Assembly: GCA_029565395.1 (NCBI GenBank)
Contig: JAKQOG010000069.1
Span: 14,322-78,321 of the forward strand
Origin: Candidatus Hydrogenedentota bacterium
GTDB taxonomy: Bacteria; Hydrogenedentota; Hydrogenedentia; Hydrogenedentales; CAILVY01
Direction of reading: 5' to 3'
Length of the DNA stretch: 64,000 nucleotides
In this document: in pieces, positions 4,673-13,562 of the stretch
Numbering within the stretch: position 1 is the first letter of the stretch
How the letters are laid out: every line of letters begins with the position of its first letter
The notes under the pieces: generated by a model
Seen by the model: the letters and a program-made list of their open reading frames with translations, nothing else
What the model was told of the DNA's origin: nothing
The model's database searches: none
Translations under genes and position numbers: made by a program

Positions 4673-4786
4673 AGATTCTGCTCAAACTCCACAAATTCGA
4701 TATTTTTTCTTAACATTGTCCATAGTGGTGGCTGTTTGCTATGATAATACTCCTTCAATACGACGAAAATGCAAGGAGATAATTTC

Positions 4787-5722
4787 ATGGCGAAGATTCT
4801 TGTGACAGGCGGGGCGGGATTTATCGGCTCGCATGTTGTGGATACATATGTAGCGGCGGGACATGAGGTGGTGGTGGTGGATAATCTTCATGCGGGGAAA
4901 CGGGAGAATGTAAATCCCCGGGCCGTGTTTTGTCACATGGACATTCGCTTGAGTTCGCTGGAATCGGTGTTTGAGCAATTTCAGCCAGAGTATGTGAATC
5001 ATCATGCGGCGCAGATCGACGTACGGCGGAGTTTGACGGAACCGGTATTCGATGCGGATGTGAATATTTTGGGGTCGATCAATTTGCTGGAGAACTGCAT
5101 TAAATATAAGGTGACCAAATTTATTTTTGCATCGACCGGCGGGGCGATCTATGGCGATCCGAAGAATTTGCCGGCCTCGGAGGAATGTCCGCCCAATCCT
5201 AAATGCCATTACGCCACGAGCAAATTGGCGTTTGAATACTATCTTCAACTGTACAAAACCCTGTATGGCCTGCGGTATACCGTGCTGCGGTATCCGAATG
5301 TATTCGGGCCGCGTCAAAGCCCGGAGGGGGAGGCGGGGGTGTGTTCGATCCTCGCCGGCCTGATGCTGGCCGGGATACAGCCGACGCTCTATGGCTTCGG
5401 GAAAGCATTGCGGGATTATGTATATGTGGGCGACATCAGCCGGGCAAACAAGATTGCGTTGGAAAAAGGGGATGGTGAGATTCTTAATTTGGGTTCGGGC
5501 AAAGGGACGTCGGTCCGGGAACTGTTTGATATTATCCGTGAATTTTCCGGTTTTGAAGGGGAGCCGCAATTGAAGCCCTTGCGCCCTGGAGAAATAGAGA
5601 GGGTGTTTATAACGGGAGAGAAGGCCGCGCAGATCCTTGGCTGGCGGCCTGAAATACTCCTGCGTGAGGGATTGCGCAATACGGTCGCGTACATCCGGCA
5701 GCAGCAGTCGATCAATAACTGA
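4787..5722 (+). CDS. NAD-dependent epimerase/dehydratase (UDP-sugar 4-epimerase-like SDR)
   Basis: MAKILVTGGAGFIGSH Rossmann motif and the Y-x3-K motif (YATSKLAFEYY). The SD sequence AAGGAG at 4773-4778 sits 8 nt upstream of the ATG at 4787. The ORF-track start at 4769 is probably too early. Confidence 0.9.
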   Translation: MAKILVTGGAGFIGSHVVDTYVAAGHEVVVVDNLHAGKRENVNPRAVFCHMDIRLSSLESVFEQFQPEYVNHHAAQIDVRRSLTEPVFDADVNILGSINLLENCIKYKVTKFIFASTGGAIYGDPKNLPASEECPPNPKCHYATSKLAFEYYLQLYKTLYGLRYTVLRYPNVFGPRQSPEGEAGVCSILAGLMLAGIQPTLYGFGKALRDYVYVGDISRANKIALEKGDGEILNLGSGKGTSVRELFDIIREFSGFEGEPQLKPLRPGEIERVFITGEKAAQILGWRPEILLREGLRNTVAYIRQQQSINN

Positions 5723-5765: not shown

Positions 5766-7370
5766 ATGTCTCTGAAGATGGAACGAAGCACGGAGCGCCG
5801 GGGGTATCCTTTATGGGGTCCCCGCTGGGGGGTTGGAGGCTATTTCCTGGTTGTGTTTCCTGTATTTATCCTTTTGACGCTCTGTTTTGGGCTGGGCCGT
5901 TGTCTTTATCATGAGGTGCCTTTTTGGGAAACATTTGGTATTGTTCTTTTTTCTCTCACGATGGTGGTGCTGGGCATGGTTCCGATGGGGCTGCCCGTTC
6001 TTGTAGCCCTTGCCATGAAAGCCCGTGGGGGCCGGCACTACTATGCTTCGTTGATTCGCGTGCTTGCCTTCATGTTGCCTATTAATCTGATGTTGGCCTT
6101 TATACTGATATATGCCATTGCCTTCACTCCGCCGGACCTTGTGGCGTACCCGCTTTTGGGGCCGGCATCGCCCCTGCAGCTTTTATGGGTAAATGTATTG
6201 ATTGCGCTATTCCTGGCGTGCCCGTTGGTGTATGAACCGGAGAAGCAGGAGCTTGGCCAGTGCCGTGGCGAAACGCTGCAAGCGCCGATATTGCCGCCGC
6301 TGGTGATTCAACGCACGATGGTGACGGCGGTGGTAATAGCGTTTATTGCAGGGGGTCTGGCCAACTGGGATTTTCATCATTTGCTTCCTCTGGGGGTGGA
6401 CCGTCTGACCGCGGCGCAGCATGCACAGACGGTGGCGTTTACTACGGTGGTGTTTTCTCAGATTTTCTATGTGCTTAATTGCCGTTCGCTGACGGAGACC
6501 GTTTTCCGAACGGGCATTTTTGGCAACCGGTCCTTGATATTGGGCATTGTGGCGGCGCTTGTTTTTCAAGGCCTTCTGATATATGTCCCGTGCATGCAGC
6601 GGCTGTTTGGGTCCATGCCGTTGGGCGTATCCGATCTTCTCTGGACGGCCGCCGCGGCCTTTGTTATTTTTCCTGTGATTACCCTTGAAAAATGGCTTCG
6701 GGCGCGGCTGGTTCTGGCGGAAGTTTCAGAATATGATGATCGCCTGGGGGAACGTTCGTCGCTGTCCCATGATTTTTCCGCATTGCTGGAAAGGGCGAAT
6801 GGAAATCCGATGACAATAGGGGCGATATTGGACACGCTGGCGATTCGGGGGCATGCGTTGTTGCTGGTGTTCTTCAGTTTCCCGCTGTGCTTGCCCGTTG
6901 GGATCCCGATTTTGACGACCTTGTTGGGGCCGTTGCTGGCGTTTGTTTCGTTTTTTCTCATTTTTGGGCGGCGTCCGTGGCTTCCCAAGCGATTGCGGAA
7001 TCGCTCCATCCCCTATGAAAGCCTGGATCGGCTGGTGAACCGGTTGATGCCCCTGGCGCTGAAGGTGGAGAAGCATCTTCATTACCGTTTGTTGTTCCTG
7101 ACGGAGGAAGGACCGATGATCCGGCTGCATGCGGTGTATATGTGTTTGCTTTCGCTGGTGGTGTCGATACCCCTTCCCATCCTGTTTTTAAATCTGGTGG
7201 CCGCGCTTCCGATTCTGTTGTTGAGCCTGGGGATGTTGAAACGGGATGGTTTTTTTGTGATTCTCGCGTATGTGGCGGTGATTCCCTGTATTATCATGTA
7301 TGGGGGGCTGGTGGTGGCGGGCGTGGAAAGCATTCAGCATATGATGAGCGTCCTGAGTCCGGGCGGTTAA
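5766..7370 (+). CDS. Membrane protein fusing a P-type ATPase membrane domain (TM4 PEGLP-like segment + Cation_ATPase_C) that lacks the cytoplasmic ATPase domains to an ExoD exopolysaccharide-synthesis domain
   Basis: MVPMGLPVLVALAMKARG resembles the P-type ATPase TM4 PEGLPAVVT..ALG..RMAK segment. PLQLLWVNVLIALFLA and AQTVAFTTVVFSQIFYVLNCRS...IYVPCMQRLFG match the Cation_ATPase_C signature. There is no DKTGT or nucleotide-binding region. The C-terminal half (LDTLAIRGHALLLVFFSFPLCLPVGIPILTT...RPWLPKRLRNRSIP) is ExoD-like. Confidence 0.6.
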   Translation: MSLKMERSTERRGYPLWGPRWGVGGYFLVVFPVFILLTLCFGLGRCLYHEVPFWETFGIVLFSLTMVVLGMVPMGLPVLVALAMKARGGRHYYASLIRVLAFMLPINLMLAFILIYAIAFTPPDLVAYPLLGPASPLQLLWVNVLIALFLACPLVYEPEKQELGQCRGETLQAPILPPLVIQRTMVTAVVIAFIAGGLANWDFHHLLPLGVDRLTAAQHAQTVAFTTVVFSQIFYVLNCRSLTETVFRTGIFGNRSLILGIVAALVFQGLLIYVPCMQRLFGSMPLGVSDLLWTAAAAFVIFPVITLEKWLRARLVLAEVSEYDDRLGERSSLSHDFSALLERANGNPMTIGAILDTLAIRGHALLLVFFSFPLCLPVGIPILTTLLGPLLAFVSFFLIFGRRPWLPKRLRNRSIPYESLDRLVNRLMPLALKVEKHLHYRLLFLTEEGPMIRLHAVYMCLLSLVVSIPLPILFLNLVAALPILLLSLGMLKRDGFFVILAYVAVIPCIIMYGGLVVAGVESIQHMMSVLSPGG

Positions 7371-7383
7371 GAGAAAGAGGCAC

Positions 7384-8112
7384 ATGACGGACAATGGCCG
7401 AGAAGATTTGGAAATGCGCCGGGGCGTTGTGGGTATAGTGCCGTGTTACAACGCCGGGGACCGTATTAGCCATGTTGTTGAGCGGATGCTGTTTTTTTTG
7501 GATCGGGTTCTTGTGGTCAATGACGGGAGCACGGACGGCTGTGTTCAATCACTGGATGCGCTGCCCGCCGAGGTTATCACGTTTGAGAAGAACCGGGGCA
7601 AGGGGCATGCGATTCTGGCGGGCTTGAAACGGGCGCTCGAATATCCGGAATGCTCCGCATGCTGTTTGCTTGATGCCGACGGGCAGCATGATCCCGCCGA
7701 GATTCCCCGGCTCTTTGAACGCATGCGGGAAACCGGAGCTGATCTGGTGATTGGCGCGCGGGATTTTAAGGTGGGGCGCGTGCCCTGGCGGAGCCGGTTC
7801 GGGAACCGTGTCACGGTGTGGGTTACCGCGCGGCTGCTGGGGTCGCGGTTGCCAGACACCCAAAGCGGTTTTCGCATGTTGTCGGGGCGGTTTGTCCGGG
7901 AGGTGCTGGAGAGTGTGGCCGGAGGGCGGTATGAAACGGAGATGGAGATCATCATCCGTGCGTTGCGGGGTGGATTTGGCGTGGAATCCGTTCCGATTGC
8001 GACTATTTACGAGGCGGGCAATCGTTCTTCTCATTTTCGTAAAATCCGGGATTCACTGCGTATTTATGGACGTTTGATACGCGCAGCGGTAAAATATTCT
8101 CCGCGCTATTAA
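7384..8112 (+). CDS. Family-2 glycosyltransferase (dolichyl-phosphate mannosyltransferase-like)
   Basis: VVGIVPCYNAGDRISHVVERM...VVNDGSTDG and a DAD(GQHD) DxD-like motif. 242 aa. Lies next to the ExoD-fusion and epimerase genes. Confidence 0.8.
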   Translation: MTDNGREDLEMRRGVVGIVPCYNAGDRISHVVERMLFFLDRVLVVNDGSTDGCVQSLDALPAEVITFEKNRGKGHAILAGLKRALEYPECSACCLLDADGQHDPAEIPRLFERMRETGADLVIGARDFKVGRVPWRSRFGNRVTVWVTARLLGSRLPDTQSGFRMLSGRFVREVLESVAGGRYETEMEIIIRALRGGFGVESVPIATIYEAGNRSSHFRKIRDSLRIYGRLIRAAVKYSPRY

Positions 8113-8219
8113 GTCTATTGTGGTATAATGGCCATGCGTTGCGGTGAAGGAAGATCTGGCAACGGTGAATGGAGACCGTGGTTATTGAGGAACAGGAAGA
8201 ACGGAAAAGGGTGCGGAAC

Positions 8220-9995
8220 ATGAGAGCAAATGTTATCTTTTGGCCAGTGATTTTGATCATTTGTTTGAGTGCGGGGGCCTTCGCTCAGGAAAATCCGTGC
8301 AACATCGTTGTGTCACGCGATCTGCCCGCCATGTATATTCCAGGAGGAACGGTGGAGGTGGAGTTAACCCTGAGTGGAGGGGAATCCTGTGAAATCCTTG
8401 CCTTGGGAACGTATGAAGCGATTCCGGATGGCTGGACCTTTGTATCGATGAGTCCGATCAGCGGTACGGCGCCCCAAGTTTATCCGGCGGAAGGCGATTC
8501 GGACTTGCTTGAGTTTGCCTGGTTCACGATACCGGCGTTGCCTTGTACTTTTTCATATGTTCTGAATATTCCCTGGGATGCACACGGGGAGGAAACGTTC
8601 ACCGGGAACGCTGAGTACCGTTTATTGGGCGGGCCGTTAATGTCGGAGGAAACGGTTTCGACGATAGCAGGGCCTGAGACCGAGGGCCAGGGGGAGGGGG
8701 AAGCCTGGGGTGAAGCAGAAGGCCAGGGGGAGGGCGAAGCCGGAGGTGTTGGAGAAGGCCAGGGGGAGGGAGAAAGCGGAGATGAGGGGGAAGATGAAGA
8801 AGATGGCGCTGGTGTTAACATGCAATTTGTGCGAGAACTTTCCGTGGAGCGTTACACGCCGGGTCAGCCCCTTGACGTTACGATCACGATAAGTGTTTCG
8901 ACGGCGGCAGGATTAACGGCCGTGGGGTTCTATGAAAGCTTGCCATCGGGATGGGTTTTTAATGGGTTGCGCGGAATAACCGGCGAACCGCCGATTATAG
9001 CCCCGGCGCCGGGAGATATGGGCGTGTTGGAATTTGCCTGGATCCAAATTCCAGGGTTTCCCTACACCTTTGGTTATACCGTCACTCCTCCCGAAAGTTC
9101 AGGGGGTTTGGCGTCTATATGGGGTCAGACTGAGTATCGCACCAATGGGGGGGCATTAAAATCCCCAGTGGTCATCTCTGAAATCAGCGCCGTGGAAGAA
9201 CAAACGGAAGGGGAGGGAGAAGAGGGGGAAGGAGAAGTTGGGGAGGGGGAGGGCGAGGGCGATAATCCCTCAGGAATATCGTTGGATCAACAAATAGAGG
9301 CGGAAGAATATACTCCAGGCGAAGCGTTGGAAGTTGTCATTACCATAGATACAGAGACGCCGCAAGGATTGCGGGCGCTGGGGTTGTATCAGACCCTTCC
9401 AACGGGGTGGGTGTTTAATGGCATGCGTGCCATCAGCGGGGATCTTCCCCTGGTGGCGCCTGAACCCGGCGCCATGAACTATCTGGAATTCGCATGGATC
9501 GCCATGCCCAATTTCCCCTATGTGTTCGCCTACACTGTTACGCCGGCGGAGGATGCCTGCGCGCATGTTCAGATCCATGGCCGGATTGAATACCGGACCA
9601 ATGGCCCCGCGTATTTTACGCTCATTGTCGTTACCCGAATTGCCGGGCCGGGATGTGAACCCCCAAGGGTGATGTATCCCATCGCAAGGGTGTTATATCG
9701 TCATTTTAATTGTGCGGATGCCAATGATGACGGCTATCTCAGTTTCCATGAGGCATGTGAGATTATTCCGGGGCTGACCGCGGGCCAGTTTGCGCAACTC
9801 GATGTCGATCAGGATGTTCAGTTGTCCCCCTTGGAACTTTCCACGTATTTATGCGAACACGGCCCCGCTCATGGGTGCCTCGGTGGCGATTCTGTCTTAA
9901 TTACGTTATGGGACACGGTTAAAGAGTATCTTGGCGATTTAGTCGTGTTCATCTTGTTTATATTTTCATTAATTGTAGGCTACCGGCTGGTGTAG
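8220..9995 (+). CDS. Secreted, membrane-anchored repeat protein: signal peptide, 3 copies of a ~120-aa domain with no family assignment (one A-type, two B-type), Gly-Glu linkers, EF-hand/dockerin-like Ca-binding pair, C-terminal TM anchor
   Basis: Signal peptide MRANVIFWPVILIICLSAGAFA. Domain copies carry LGTYEAIPDGWTFVSM...LEFAWFTIPALPCTFSYVLNIP, then GFYESLPSGWVFNGLRG...LEFAWIQIPGFPYTFGYTVTPPE, then GLYQTLPTGWVFNGMRA...LEFAWIAMPNFPYVFAYTVTPAE. Linkers are EGQGEGEA... and [10 protein letters not shown]. The C-terminus has DANDDGYLSFHE...LDVDQDVQLSPLEL followed by the hydrophobic LVVFILFIFSLIVGYRLV. Confidence 0.7.
   Translation: MRANVIFWPVILIICLSAGAFAQENPCNIVVSRDLPAMYIPGGTVEVELTLSGGESCEILALGTYEAIPDGWTFVSMSPISGTAPQVYPAEGDSDLLEFAWFTIPALPCTFSYVLNIPWDAHGEETFTGNAEYRLLGGPLMSEETVSTIAGPETEGQGEGEAWGEAEGQGEGEAGGVGEGQGEGESGDEGEDEEDGAGVNMQFVRELSVERYTPGQPLDVTITISVSTAAGLTAVGFYESLPSGWVFNGLRGITGEPPIIAPAPGDMGVLEFAWIQIPGFPYTFGYTVTPPESSGGLASIWGQTEYRTNGGALKSPVVISEISAVEEQTEGEGEEGEGEVGEGEGEGDNPSGISLDQQIEAEEYTPGEALEVVITIDTETPQGLRALGLYQTLPTGWVFNGMRAISGDLPLVAPEPGAMNYLEFAWIAMPNFPYVFAYTVTPAEDACAHVQIHGRIEYRTNGPAYFTLIVVTRIAGPGCEPPRVMYPIARVLYRHFNCADANDDGYLSFHEACEIIPGLTAGQFAQLDVDQDVQLSPLELSTYLCEHGPAHGCLGGDSVLITLWDTVKEYLGDLVVFILFIFSLIVGYRLV
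8680..8815 (+). repeat. GAAGGN-type hexanucleotide repeat tract that encodes a Gly-Glu acidic linker
   Basis: DNA (GAGGGCCAGGGGGAGGGG/GAAGCC...)n encodes ETEGQGEGEAWGEAEGQGEGEAGGVGEGQGEGESGDEGEDEEDG. The reverse strand gives a spurious Pro/Ser ORF (8480..8821). Confidence 0.6.
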
Positions 9996-10186
9996 CGAAA
10001 TTTTGATGCCAGAAGACGGATTGGCTTGTGAAGGGGAAAGGGGAAAACACAAGCGCTTTAACGTATTGAATGGTCCTATTGTGTTATAATTTGATTACTT
10101 GATGCGGAAACGCGCGCGTGTCGCTTTTTTAACCGCCGTCTGCGTTGGTTGAATGTACGAACACTATGTGGAATAAGGATTTGGCC

Positions 10187-11128
10187 ATGAAACCGAGCTA
10201 TGTGATGTGGGTAACCGTTCTGTTGGGTGGAATAGTCCTGATGCCGCAGGCAGTGGCGGAGAATCCATTGGGCATGACCCTGAGCAGGGAATTACCGGAA
10301 ACGTATACGGCGGGCGGCACGGTGGAGGTAGAGCTTACGCTGAGTTGTACCGGCGTGGATACAATCCTGGCCTTGGGGGCTTATGAAACCGTTCCCGCGG
10401 ACTGGACCTTTGTCAGCATGAGGGAAGTGAATGGTGCGAAGCCTCAGATAGGTCCGCAAGTGGGCGATTCCGGCACGCTGGAATTTGCGTGGTTTTCCAT
10501 TCCTGCCTTGCCTTGTACCTTTGCTTATACGCTGAATGTCCCCGCCGATGCCCAAGGGTTAAAAACCTTCACCGGGCAGATTGAATATCGCTTAGGCGGC
10601 GGACAATTGTTTTCCGATGACGAAACCTCGACAATTGTGGACGTAGTGACGGAAGGCGAAGGCGCAATAGAAGGCCAAGCCGAGGGCGAGGGCGAAGGCA
10701 TTGTTGAAGGCCAAGGAGAGGGCGAGGGGGAAGGCATTGTTGAGGGCCAAGCCGAGGGCGAAGGCGAAGGCATGACGGAAGGAGAGGCGGTTGATACATT
10801 GGCGGCGGCGGAGACGTTGCAGAATGGGTTTTCACAAGCGGATCAGAATGCGGATGGTTCGCTCAGTTTTGCAGAAGCCTCCACCTTTGCAGCCGGGCTT
10901 ACGGAAGCGCAGTTCAACGAATTGGACACTAATGGCGACGGCAGTGTGACGGCGGTAGAATTGGCGGCGTATATTGAAGCGAACACGCTGGTCTGCGGGT
11001 GCAATTGTAACAAAGCGGAGATGTATTCCGGAGATTGGTTTAAACGTTCCCTTGGCGATCTGTTTCTTGCCGGACTAGGCTTGGTTATTCTTGTGGCGAG
11101 CGCCAGAATGGGCCGGTATGGACGTTGA
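10187..11128 (+). CDS. Paralogous membrane-anchored surface protein: signal peptide, one A-type ~120-aa domain, Gly-Glu linker, EF-hand/dockerin-like pair, CGCNC motif, C-terminal TM anchor
   Basis: LGAYETVPADWTFVSM...GDSGTLEFAWFSIPALPCTFAYTLNVP...FTGQIEYR. Linker EGEGAIEGQAEGEGEGIVEGQGEGEGEG. Ca-binding pair DQNADGSLSFAEAS...LDTNGDGSVTAVELAAYIEAN. Then CGCNCNKA and the TM segment LFLAGLGLVILVASARMGRYGR. Confidence 0.7.
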   Translation: MKPSYVMWVTVLLGGIVLMPQAVAENPLGMTLSRELPETYTAGGTVEVELTLSCTGVDTILALGAYETVPADWTFVSMREVNGAKPQIGPQVGDSGTLEFAWFSIPALPCTFAYTLNVPADAQGLKTFTGQIEYRLGGGQLFSDDETSTIVDVVTEGEGAIEGQAEGEGEGIVEGQGEGEGEGIVEGQAEGEGEGMTEGEAVDTLAAAETLQNGFSQADQNADGSLSFAEASTFAAGLTEAQFNELDTNGDGSVTAVELAAYIEANTLVCGCNCNKAEMYSGDWFKRSLGDLFLAGLGLVILVASARMGRYGR

Positions 11129-11302
11129 GCCGGAAAGACTTTGGAAGTTGATGTATAAGGGGGGCGCAGGCGGTGTGGTATAATCGCGGCAATAATGTGA
11201 AGTTGGGTGGAGTATGTCACCTTTTTCTCTTCCATCCGCGTTAAATTTATGTGGGCGAACACAGGATACAATAAGGGTTTAGCCGTGCAAAGAAGGAATG
11301 TA

Positions 11303-12085
11303 ATGCTGCTGGTGATTATTTTGGCGGCCACGCTGGGATTGATCCCTCAGGCCATGGCCGATAATCCGGTGGGCATGGCGCTGACCCGGCAATTGCCGGG
11401 CACTTATACGCCGGGCGGGCCGGTGGAAGTCCAGTTGACTCTGAGCTGCAGCAATGATGAGGGTGCCATCATGGCCTTAGGGCTGTATGAGACCGTTCCG
11501 GCGGGATGGACCTTTGTCAGCATGCGTGGCGTAAGTGGTGTGAAACCGCAGTTAGGTCCCACGGCAGGTGAATCCGGCATCCTGGAATTCGCATGGTTCA
11601 CCATCCCGGTTTTTCCCTATACGTTTGCATATACCCTGAATGTTCCCGCAAACGCCCAGGGGCAACAAACCTTCACAGGGCAGATTGAATACCGTTTGTC
11701 TGGCGGGGCCTTATTATCTGATTCTGTTGTTTCAACGATGGAAGCCGGCATTTTAGTGGCGGATGCGGAGGCGTTGCGGGACGGGTTTTTACAAGCGGAT
11801 CAGGATGCCAACGGGGCGCTGAGTTTTGAGGAGGCATCGGCCTTTTTAGCGGGCCTTTTGCAGGAACAGTTTGATCAGTTGGACGCAGATGGCGACGGGG
11901 CTGTCACGTTGGCGGAATTGAATGCCTATATCGAAGCGAACACGTCCGGCGGGGGCTGCAATTGCGGCAAGGCGGCGGCCTTTTCGAAGGATTGGTTCAC
12001 GCGTTCCCTGGGCGATATGTTTCTGGCAGGCGCAAGCCTGTTGATCCTGGCGGCCGTCTCTACATTAGGCCGCCGTGAAGAGTGA
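11303..12085 (+). CDS. Paralogous membrane-anchored surface protein: one A-type ~120-aa domain + EF-hand/dockerin-like pair + GGGCNCG motif + C-terminal TM anchor (no Gly-Glu linker)
   Basis: LGLYETVPAGWTFVSMRGVSGVKPQLGPTAGESGILEFAWFTIPVFPYTFAYTLNVP...FTGQIEYR. Ca-binding pair DQDANGALSFEEASAF...LDADGDGAVTLAELNAYIEANT. Then CNCGKAAAFSKDWFTRSLGDMFLAGASLLILAAV. The SD sequence GAAGGA precedes the ATG at 11303. Confidence 0.7.
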   Translation: MLLVIILAATLGLIPQAMADNPVGMALTRQLPGTYTPGGPVEVQLTLSCSNDEGAIMALGLYETVPAGWTFVSMRGVSGVKPQLGPTAGESGILEFAWFTIPVFPYTFAYTLNVPANAQGQQTFTGQIEYRLSGGALLSDSVVSTMEAGILVADAEALRDGFLQADQDANGALSFEEASAFLAGLLQEQFDQLDADGDGAVTLAELNAYIEANTSGGGCNCGKAAAFSKDWFTRSLGDMFLAGASLLILAAVSTLGRREE

Positions 12086-12131
12086 TTGGATGGAAAAGCG
12101 ATTTGAAACAAGAGAGGCAAAAAGACTAACC

Positions 12132-13562
12132 ATGGTCTATCCAGCAATGATACGAAGCCATGTTTTTTGCGTTGGCGCAAGCGTTTTAGGACTTCTTCTA
12201 GTTATCCTAAGCGGGGGGGCATGGGCGGATGCGATCTCCAAGGCCGGCGCAACCGTGCAGGAGGGGGAACTCAATTCGATAGATATGCAGCTTTTCCGGC
12301 AGTTTACGGTAATGGAATATACGCCGGGCCAGCCGTTTGAAGTAACGATTACGATGAGCGCTTCAACCACAGAGGGATTGACGGCCATTGGATTGTATGA
12401 GACCATGCCCCCCGGATGGGTTTTTAACGGGATGCGTGGTTTGACGGGGGATCCGCCCACGGTTTCCCCCCAGCCGGGGGATATGGGCGTGTTGGAATTC
12501 GCCTGGATTCAGATTCCCGAATTGCCGTACACCTTTGCGTATATCGTCACTCCGCCGGAAACGGGGGGCGGCGCGGTTTTTATCTCAGGTCAAATTGAGT
12601 ACCGCACCACTGGAGGGGCGCAAAAATCGCCGCCGGTTATTTCTAATCTGAACGGCCAGGACCGGATTGCTCCTACTATTACGGTGCTTGGCGCCAATCC
12701 CCTGGAGGTGACGCAAAATACCGCCTTTGCCGATCCGGGCGCTACGGCGAATGATAATGTGGACGGAGACATCAGCAGCCGCGTTCAGGTGATCGGGAAT
12801 GTGGATACGTCCACGCTGGGCATGTATACGCTGACCTACCGGGTCAGCGACCAGGCGGGGAATCAAGCGGAAGCCACGCGAACCGTACGAGTGGTTTCGG
12901 CATCCACCGGAACGGGCGGGGTGTATACCGGGGGCGGCACTTCTTCCACGGGCCGTACCGGCGGTACAAGCCGGAGCTCAGCGGGCACTTCTTCCGCGGC
13001 CGCGGCGTCCAAGCAAAATACCCAGAAACCGGCCAATGTGAATGTCAATGTAACTCCCGATACTACAGCCACTGCACGTCTGGCGGAAATGATGGCGAAG
13101 CGTGAAGAAACGCAAAACAAGCTGAAGGAAGCGCAAAAGCATGTGGCCACGCCGGCGAAGAATGAAGGCGGGAAACCGCCTGCAAAAAAACCGGGTGACG
13201 CCACGGGCACCCCCGCCGCTTCTACGGAAGGGCAAGCGGAGGAAACTACGGATGCCACCACTGCAAAACCCGCTGAACCACCTAAGGAGGAAGAAACCGC
13301 GGCGCCCGTTGCCGAGGAAAATACGGCGCCGGTAGCGTCAAAACCGCCGAAGGTATCCACTACGCCCCCATCCCCGGGGATTTTTGCCGTGTTGAAGGAG
13401 CGGTTTGCCCAGATGACGCCTTCGCAACTAGCTAGTTTAATGGTGGGCCTCGCCGTCGCACTTGCATTGTTAGCGTTTACCCTGCTGGCCTGGAAAATAG
13501 CCTATAGCCCGCCTGTCAGACGCCGTCCATCTATTGAAAATCCTGTTGAAGAAGAAAAATAA
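12132..13562 (+). CDS. Paralogous surface protein: signal peptide, one B-type ~120-aa domain, Ig-like (DUF5011-type) domain, Ala/Thr/Pro/Lys-rich low-complexity stalk, C-terminal TM anchor
   Basis: GLYETMPPGWVFNGMRGLTGDPPTVSPQPGDMGVLEFAWIQIPELPYTFAYIVTPPE. The Ig-like segment APTITVLGANPLEVTQNTAFADPGATANDNVDGDISSRVQVIGNVDTSTLGMYTLTYRVSDQAGNQAEATRTVRV matches the DUF5011 pattern. The low-complexity stalk spans about aa 280-440. The TM anchor is LASLMVGLAVALALLAFTLLAW. Confidence 0.65.
   Translation: MVYPAMIRSHVFCVGASVLGLLLVILSGGAWADAISKAGATVQEGELNSIDMQLFRQFTVMEYTPGQPFEVTITMSASTTEGLTAIGLYETMPPGWVFNGMRGLTGDPPTVSPQPGDMGVLEFAWIQIPELPYTFAYIVTPPETGGGAVFISGQIEYRTTGGAQKSPPVISNLNGQDRIAPTITVLGANPLEVTQNTAFADPGATANDNVDGDISSRVQVIGNVDTSTLGMYTLTYRVSDQAGNQAEATRTVRVVSASTGTGGVYTGGGTSSTGRTGGTSRSSAGTSSAAAASKQNTQKPANVNVNVTPDTTATARLAEMMAKREETQNKLKEAQKHVATPAKNEGGKPPAKKPGDATGTPAASTEGQAEETTDATTAKPAEPPKEEETAAPVAEENTAPVASKPPKVSTTPPSPGIFAVLKERFAQMTPSQLASLMVGLAVALALLAFTLLAWKIAYSPPVRRRPSIENPVEEEK

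Follow-up and report, generated by a model that had tools for sequence, protein, structure and literature searches.

ExoD, an orphan 'exopolysaccharide' membrane protein, has been known since 1991, and for 35 years its mechanism has been described as unknown. Its mutants, with phenotypes described from Sinorhizobium meliloti and Synechocystis, make less exopolysaccharide (EPS) and are alkali-sensitive, and its role is 'still unknown' (PMC1403797, PMC4594306). The ExoD fold has no solved structural relative. The gene described here lies in a window of 64 kb, by which we mean the whole stretch of DNA that was analyzed. Its product shares the complete ExoD domain (PF06055) with the S. meliloti protein and with Synechocystis slr1875, but differs from both in that this domain is preceded by ~320 aa of a P-type pump membrane core; the S. 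meliloti exoD gene has no pump neighbor.

On the pump side, the closest group comprises the LMCA1 and PMR1-SPCA1 P2A Ca2+-ATPases (Listeria lmo0841, PDB 6ZHH/6ZHF; human SPCA1, PDB 8IWP/7YAG). Compared with LMCA1 and SPCA1, the window protein lacks the N-terminal domain, M1-M2 and the A, P and N domains, as well as the TGES, DKTGT and TGDGVND motifs. Further, its M4 Glu is replaced by Met, and the M6 Asp is missing both from it and from its whole parental subfamily. FXYD, phospholamban/sarcolipin, the Na,K-ATPase beta subunit, CDC50 and KdpF are accessory membrane subunits of P-type pumps. They offer a functional analogy only, namely that of a small membrane protein tied both genetically and physically to a P-type pump: ExoD shows no relationship to them in sequence or fold, is a bacterial protein of greater size (about five helices), and is genetically coupled to pumps of both the P2 and the P1B kind. 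GtrA/GtrB and Rv3632/PpgS, in turn, are pairs of a small membrane protein and a polyprenyl-phosphate sugar synthase. The gene order at our locus is alike, with a membrane protein beside a small GT2 glycosyltransferase of the polyprenyl-phosphate type and a sugar-nucleotide epimerase upstream. However, ExoD and GtrA (PF04138) are not related, the GT2 of the window falls far under the PpgS cut-off, and its association with the fusion is confined to close relatives.

Against this background, we assign a probability of roughly 0.55 to the reading that this gene arose by decay of a pump::ExoD fusion, with ExoD doing the work and the dead pump core kept as a scaffold.

A pump core without its ATPase head

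Pfam profiles, sequence alignment and predicted fold agree on a headless pump core joined to ExoD (Table 1). The P2A-like homology of the membrane domain is apparent in a PF00689 match spanning M5-M10 and in M4, which carries the unwound helix motif PxGLP. When aligned with full-length pumps (alignment A1), columns ~314-689 are filled in the pumps and empty in the fusion, which resumes past this gap with 'GGRHYYASLIRVLAFMLPINL' as opposed to the 'EGRRVYDNLIKSLAFVLPTNL' of the pumps. The ExoD module is typical of its family: the PF06055 match scores 139.4 bits against a cut-off of 23.8 and covers profile positions 5-178 of 180, the family-invariant columns R, P, P, G, P, R, N, D and G are all present, and identity to stand-alone ExoD proteins reaches 71%. 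An AF2 model of the whole 534-aa protein forms one compact, confident structure (pLDDT 87.8, pTM 0.79), with helices at aa 23-48, 53-71 and 76-86 in the M3-M4 region; ExoD modeled alone reaches a pLDDT of 91. As a predicted sign of contact between the pump and ExoD parts, the pTM of the fused protein is only suggestive. The junction 'LAEVSEYDDRLGERSSLS' is conserved among the fusions and recurs in P0025 and P0026, relatives with probably only M10 of the pump; the BLASTP match between P0026 and P0004, a fusion 46% identical to that of the window, begins with the 'RWLRP' motif.

Table 1. Features of the fusion gene and its immediate neighbors, in window coordinates
Feature	Position	Strand	Basis
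NAD-dependent sugar-nucleotide epimerase (GalE-like), upstream, 43-nt gap	4769..5722	+	Pfam, NCBIfam; syntenic in L093, L001, L013
Whole gene: headless P2A-type pump membrane core (M3-M10)::ExoD, 534 aa	5766..7370	+	ORF list, Pfam PF00689 + PF06055, AF2 model, orthologs
M3-M4 hairpin, aa ~20-86; M4 motif VPMGLP replaces IPEGLP	5823..6023	+	Alignment A1 with full-length pumps
Excision scar: short cytoplasmic turn 'ARGGRH' in place of ~376-aa P + N domains	6021..6038	+	Alignment A1
M5-M10, aa 91-318; C-terminal end is the conserved pump motif 'EKWLR'	6036..6719	+	
Cytoplasmic junction, aa 319-336, 'LAEVSEYDDRLGERSSLS'	6720..6773	+	Alignments A2, A6
ExoD module, aa 337-534; about five membrane helices; Pro-rich motifs PLCLPVGIP, IPLPILFLNLVAALP	6774..7367	+	PF06055, E 1e-40
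Soluble GT2 (polyprenyl-phosphate sugar synthase-like), downstream, 13-nt gap	7384..8112	+	PF00535; syntenic in L093, L001, L013

Nothing of the ATPase head was detected in the fusion. There is neither a PF00702 match nor a DKTGT motif that would mark the phosphorylation (P) domain with its HAD fold; there is no PF00122 match or TGES motif of an actuator domain, the protein beginning just ahead of M3; and both the nucleotide-binding domain (PF13246) and the TGDGxND hinge are missing. The fusion protein is unable to bind or hydrolyze ATP or to be phosphorylated, and it is therefore not a pump. A hidden or split ATPase is ruled out by the upstream gap and by tblastn searches in which three P2 and one P1B pump queries matched nothing else pump-like within the 64-kb window. 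The ORF itself has no stops or frameshifts, and there is neither room nor signal for the missing domains.

An earlier note on this DNA had proposed a P-type pump membrane core without A, P and N domains fused to ExoD, had called the architecture unusual, and had suggested a Pfam scan, a check for a split or frameshifted pump and a search for the same fusion in other genomes. The architecture is as it described: both profiles match, and the ORF list and the tblastn searches rule out a full-length pump that has been split or frameshifted. The same intact frame, of 533-585 aa, recurs in at least five independent assemblies (JGI, NCBI, Logan) down to 46% identity. It is indeed unusual, with the fusion being present in 2 of 1.84 billion cluster representatives and in 2 of 185,579 species genomes; scans of metagenome contigs and viral contigs yielded no further loci. 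Short proteins from the search of representatives with only a Cation_ATPase_C match (P0047, P0049, P0065, P0109, P0159, P0166 and others) were considered as additional headless cores and rejected; they are N-terminally truncated or frameshifted pieces of ordinary pumps. Likewise, P0083, P0072, P0114 and P0184, long pumps extended at either the C- or the N-terminus, do not carry ExoD. As far as searchable data and the literature show, a P-type pump membrane domain maintained by selection in the absence of its ATPase head is unprecedented.

Selection on the core and alternative readings

The two halves of the gene differ in their evolution, with a dN/dS of 0.18-0.29 in the pump half versus 0.04-0.08 in the ExoD half, the former evolving 4-5 times faster. 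Among the fusions, identity falls from 82 through 51 to 28% in the pump half, versus 95, 87 and 66% in ExoD. Where the pump half is 51% identical, the neighboring genes are 77-78% identical, and its rate is about twice that of neighboring housekeeping genes. The pump remnant is nonetheless not evolving neutrally. The strongest constraint within it falls on M5-M6 (dN/dS 0.11-0.19), which, together with the invariant polar residues of the core, could mean that some activity has been retained instead of the fold alone being maintained.

The position of the M4 Glu (the equivalent of SERCA E309), which all close full-length pumps retain, is occupied by M, A, V or L across all four fusions (Met74 in the window gene); this glutamate, on which ion binding and gating depend, has been lost. 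The M6 Asp position (D800 equivalent) is Ala147 in the window gene and A, T or S in 78 of 78 parental pumps, with none being acidic. With the M4 Glu replaced and the M6 Asp missing, there is therefore no canonical cation site. On the other hand, all fusions and 78 of 78 parental pumps share N107, Q138, N143, E157, Q221 and Q232 without exception, and the polar core residues that define the parental subfamily, the M4 Glu excepted, are unchanged even in P0004, which is 28% identical in this half. Of these, N107, Q138, N143 and Q232 leave room for a possible non-canonical path.

These observations bear on several alternatives to a dead scaffold. That the gene is a non-functional relic, either a pseudogene or an artefact of assembly or gene calling, is highly improbable. 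It is true that metagenome gene calls may mislead, as in the case of P0124, a seemingly short remnant that is the tail of a frameshifted full-length gene, and that the short Cation_ATPase_C-only matches proved to be contig-end fragments. However, this explanation is already largely refuted by the recurrence of one intact frame in independent assemblies, by a dN/dS far under 1 in both halves and by an uninterrupted ORF with no space for the missing domains; neither the broken frame nor the dN/dS near 1 that characterize pseudogenes was found. A further alternative is that M3-M10, alone or with ExoD, has been repurposed as a passive or gradient-driven cation or proton path, or as a ligand-binding or sensing pocket. 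The purifying selection peaking in M5-M6, the invariance of the six polar residues, the clean removal of all soluble domains with retention of each core helix of M3-M10, the compact single structure in the model and the alkali sensitivity of exoD mutants are all consistent with such a module. We still regard it as unlikely: the M4 Glu has given way to a different hydrophobic residue in each lineage, which is the pattern expected of a disused site, the M6 Asp position has no acidic residue, the pump half outpaces both its neighbors and ExoD, and close relatives do without most or all of the helix bundle. We know of no P-type pump membrane domain that conducts ions without a large conformational drive or toxins. 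The 'passive cation path' suggested in the earlier note is hence unsupported, given the replacement of the M4 Glu in every fusion and the missing M6 Asp in the parental subfamily.

The gene neighborhood raises yet another alternative, in which the fusion would be the partner of a glycan pathway, anchoring or activating the epimerase-fed GT2 or flipping a lipid-linked sugar in the manner of GtrA/GtrB or Rv3632/PpgS, with decoration of the four surface proteins encoded downstream at 8169-13562 as the outcome. The genes share one strand throughout with tight gaps (43 and 13 nt), and the block of epimerase, fusion, GT2 and surface proteins is conserved in L093, L001 and L013. Additionally, the GT2 has no membrane segment (maximum hydropathy 1.10), its best NCBIfam matches are to polyprenyl-phosphate glycosyltransferases (PpgS and AglJ), and ExoD mutants of two organisms make less exopolysaccharide. 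Yet those matches lie far under the equivalog cut-offs (80 versus 370 bits), and the synteny is limited to close relatives that are also syntenic for unrelated flanking genes, including a divergent PALP gene. Moreover, P0004 occurs without the epimerase and GT2 arrangement and is flanked by opposite-strand glycoside-hydrolase genes, and the stand-alone ExoD contexts sampled have no adjacent GT2, that of Nostoc being ~2.3 kb away. We therefore see little likelihood of a role in this pathway. The same distribution, with the epimerase-fusion-GT2 order found only in close relatives and missing around P0004 and stand-alone ExoD, leaves the scaffold for an EPS machine envisaged in the earlier note without support.

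Coupling of ExoD to intact pumps and a proposed origin of the fusion

On the genomic evidence, a better-supported context that had been overlooked is that, elsewhere, intact P-type pumps recur as coupled neighbors or fusion partners of ExoD. In L095, a P2 pump gene is followed by exoD with a 4-nt ATGA overlap, whereas on six contigs (L105-L110) exoD precedes a P1B pump gene with an overlap of the same kind; in L049, exoD follows a pump gene of the parental subfamily. In L010, removal of one G from a G6 run at positions 9981-9986 yields a 1132-aa full-length pump::ExoD ORF with all catalytic motifs intact and the pump/ExoD junction at the C-terminus of M10. Like the window gene, these loci join ExoD to a P-type pump or co-translate the two; unlike it, their pumps keep every catalytic domain and motif, and include members of other pump subfamilies, namely a canonical P2A-like pump with 'NLVTEG' and a P1B pump with 'SPC'. 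P0124 was examined as an 'M8-M10 remnant', that is, an independent truncated fusion, and rejected as such; its locus is a full-length pump::ExoD gene with a one-base break in the G6 run, over which the gene caller had predicted antisense ORFs.

The linked cases are spread over three separate ExoD clades. With two immediate adjacencies among 11 independent ExoD-side contexts, the probability of their arising by chance is ~1e-4 to 1e-3 under the assumptions of the estimate. We accordingly view the genetic coupling of ExoD and pump genes as recurrent, in what is a small sample of ~13 lineages. No nearby pump was found for 8 of these ~13 ExoD lineages, including S. meliloti; 77 of 78 parental-pump loci are without exoD, and none of the 8 ExoD-bearing records in the plasmid collection has a pump within ~5 kb. 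Neither a link between ExoD and pumps nor a headless pump turned up in the literature, and the linkage appears to be unreported so far.

A single ExoD clade (bootstrap 84-85) unites the window clade, P0004, P0025/26 and P0022-24. The extent of the pump part varies across it: M1-M10 in P0004, M3-M10 in the window clade, the 'RWLRP' motif with one helix in P0025/26 and none in P0022-24. The lone helix of P0025/26 is probably M10, with a homology that is not statistically significant (E 0.19). The headless form is confined to the window clade and P0004. The ExoD clade of the window yielded no full-length pump::ExoD fusion; the one in L010 and the overlapping operons sit in other ExoD clades. The combined alignment (A4) was built with trimmed pump pieces. 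Given the weak support (24-62%) for nodes within the window clade, neither the order of the erosion steps nor the loss of a remnant in P0022-24 is established.

For the decayed fusion, we propose as ancestor a P2A pump from a non-canonical, LMCA1/PMR1-like subfamily that was fused to ExoD, a membrane protein of ~200 aa which in other bacteria is translationally coupled or C-terminally fused to intact P-type ATPases. In-frame deletions at domain boundaries would then have removed the N-terminus, M1-M2 and the A domain, as well as the P and N domains, so that only the bundle of eight helices, M3-M10, was left attached to ExoD. With its strong conservation, the ExoD module would perform its normal function, and the dead pump core would persist as a folded membrane scaffold because its deletion would need a new start signal and any change has to preserve both the frame of ExoD and its orientation in the membrane. 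Such a constraint would explain both the purifying but relaxed selection on the core and the stepwise N-terminal erosion in the relatives (M1-M10, M3-M10, probably M10 only, none). It would represent a rarely documented form of domain decay, in which a fused downstream module limits the erosion of the upstream pump to changes that keep frame and topology.

In the manner of a 'Rosetta stone', the window fusion, the overlapping operons and the full-length fusion connect ExoD with P-type pumps. ExoD is most likely a membrane partner of these pumps in cation homeostasis rather than a polysaccharide enzyme. This furnishes a testable cation-homeostasis hypothesis for a vague 'EPS protein', and may also account for the alkali sensitivity of rhizobial exoD mutants. 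More tentatively, and with the odds somewhat against it, ExoD may be an unrecognized partner subunit of both P2A and P1B ATPases of bacteria that docks on their membrane domain, in which case the window fusion would be a naturally occurring minimal complex with the docking platform intact. Were this true, the fusion might have an ATP-independent activity of its own, and the alkali sensitivity and reduced EPS of the mutants would be secondary to disturbed cation homeostasis. The fusion also provides a natural 'membrane-core-only' construct with which to ask what the core by itself can do or bind.

As a separate observation, exoD lies directly after atpC of the F1Fo operon in three clusters; a link with this operon was considered, and the arrangement is treated as synteny within one lineage.

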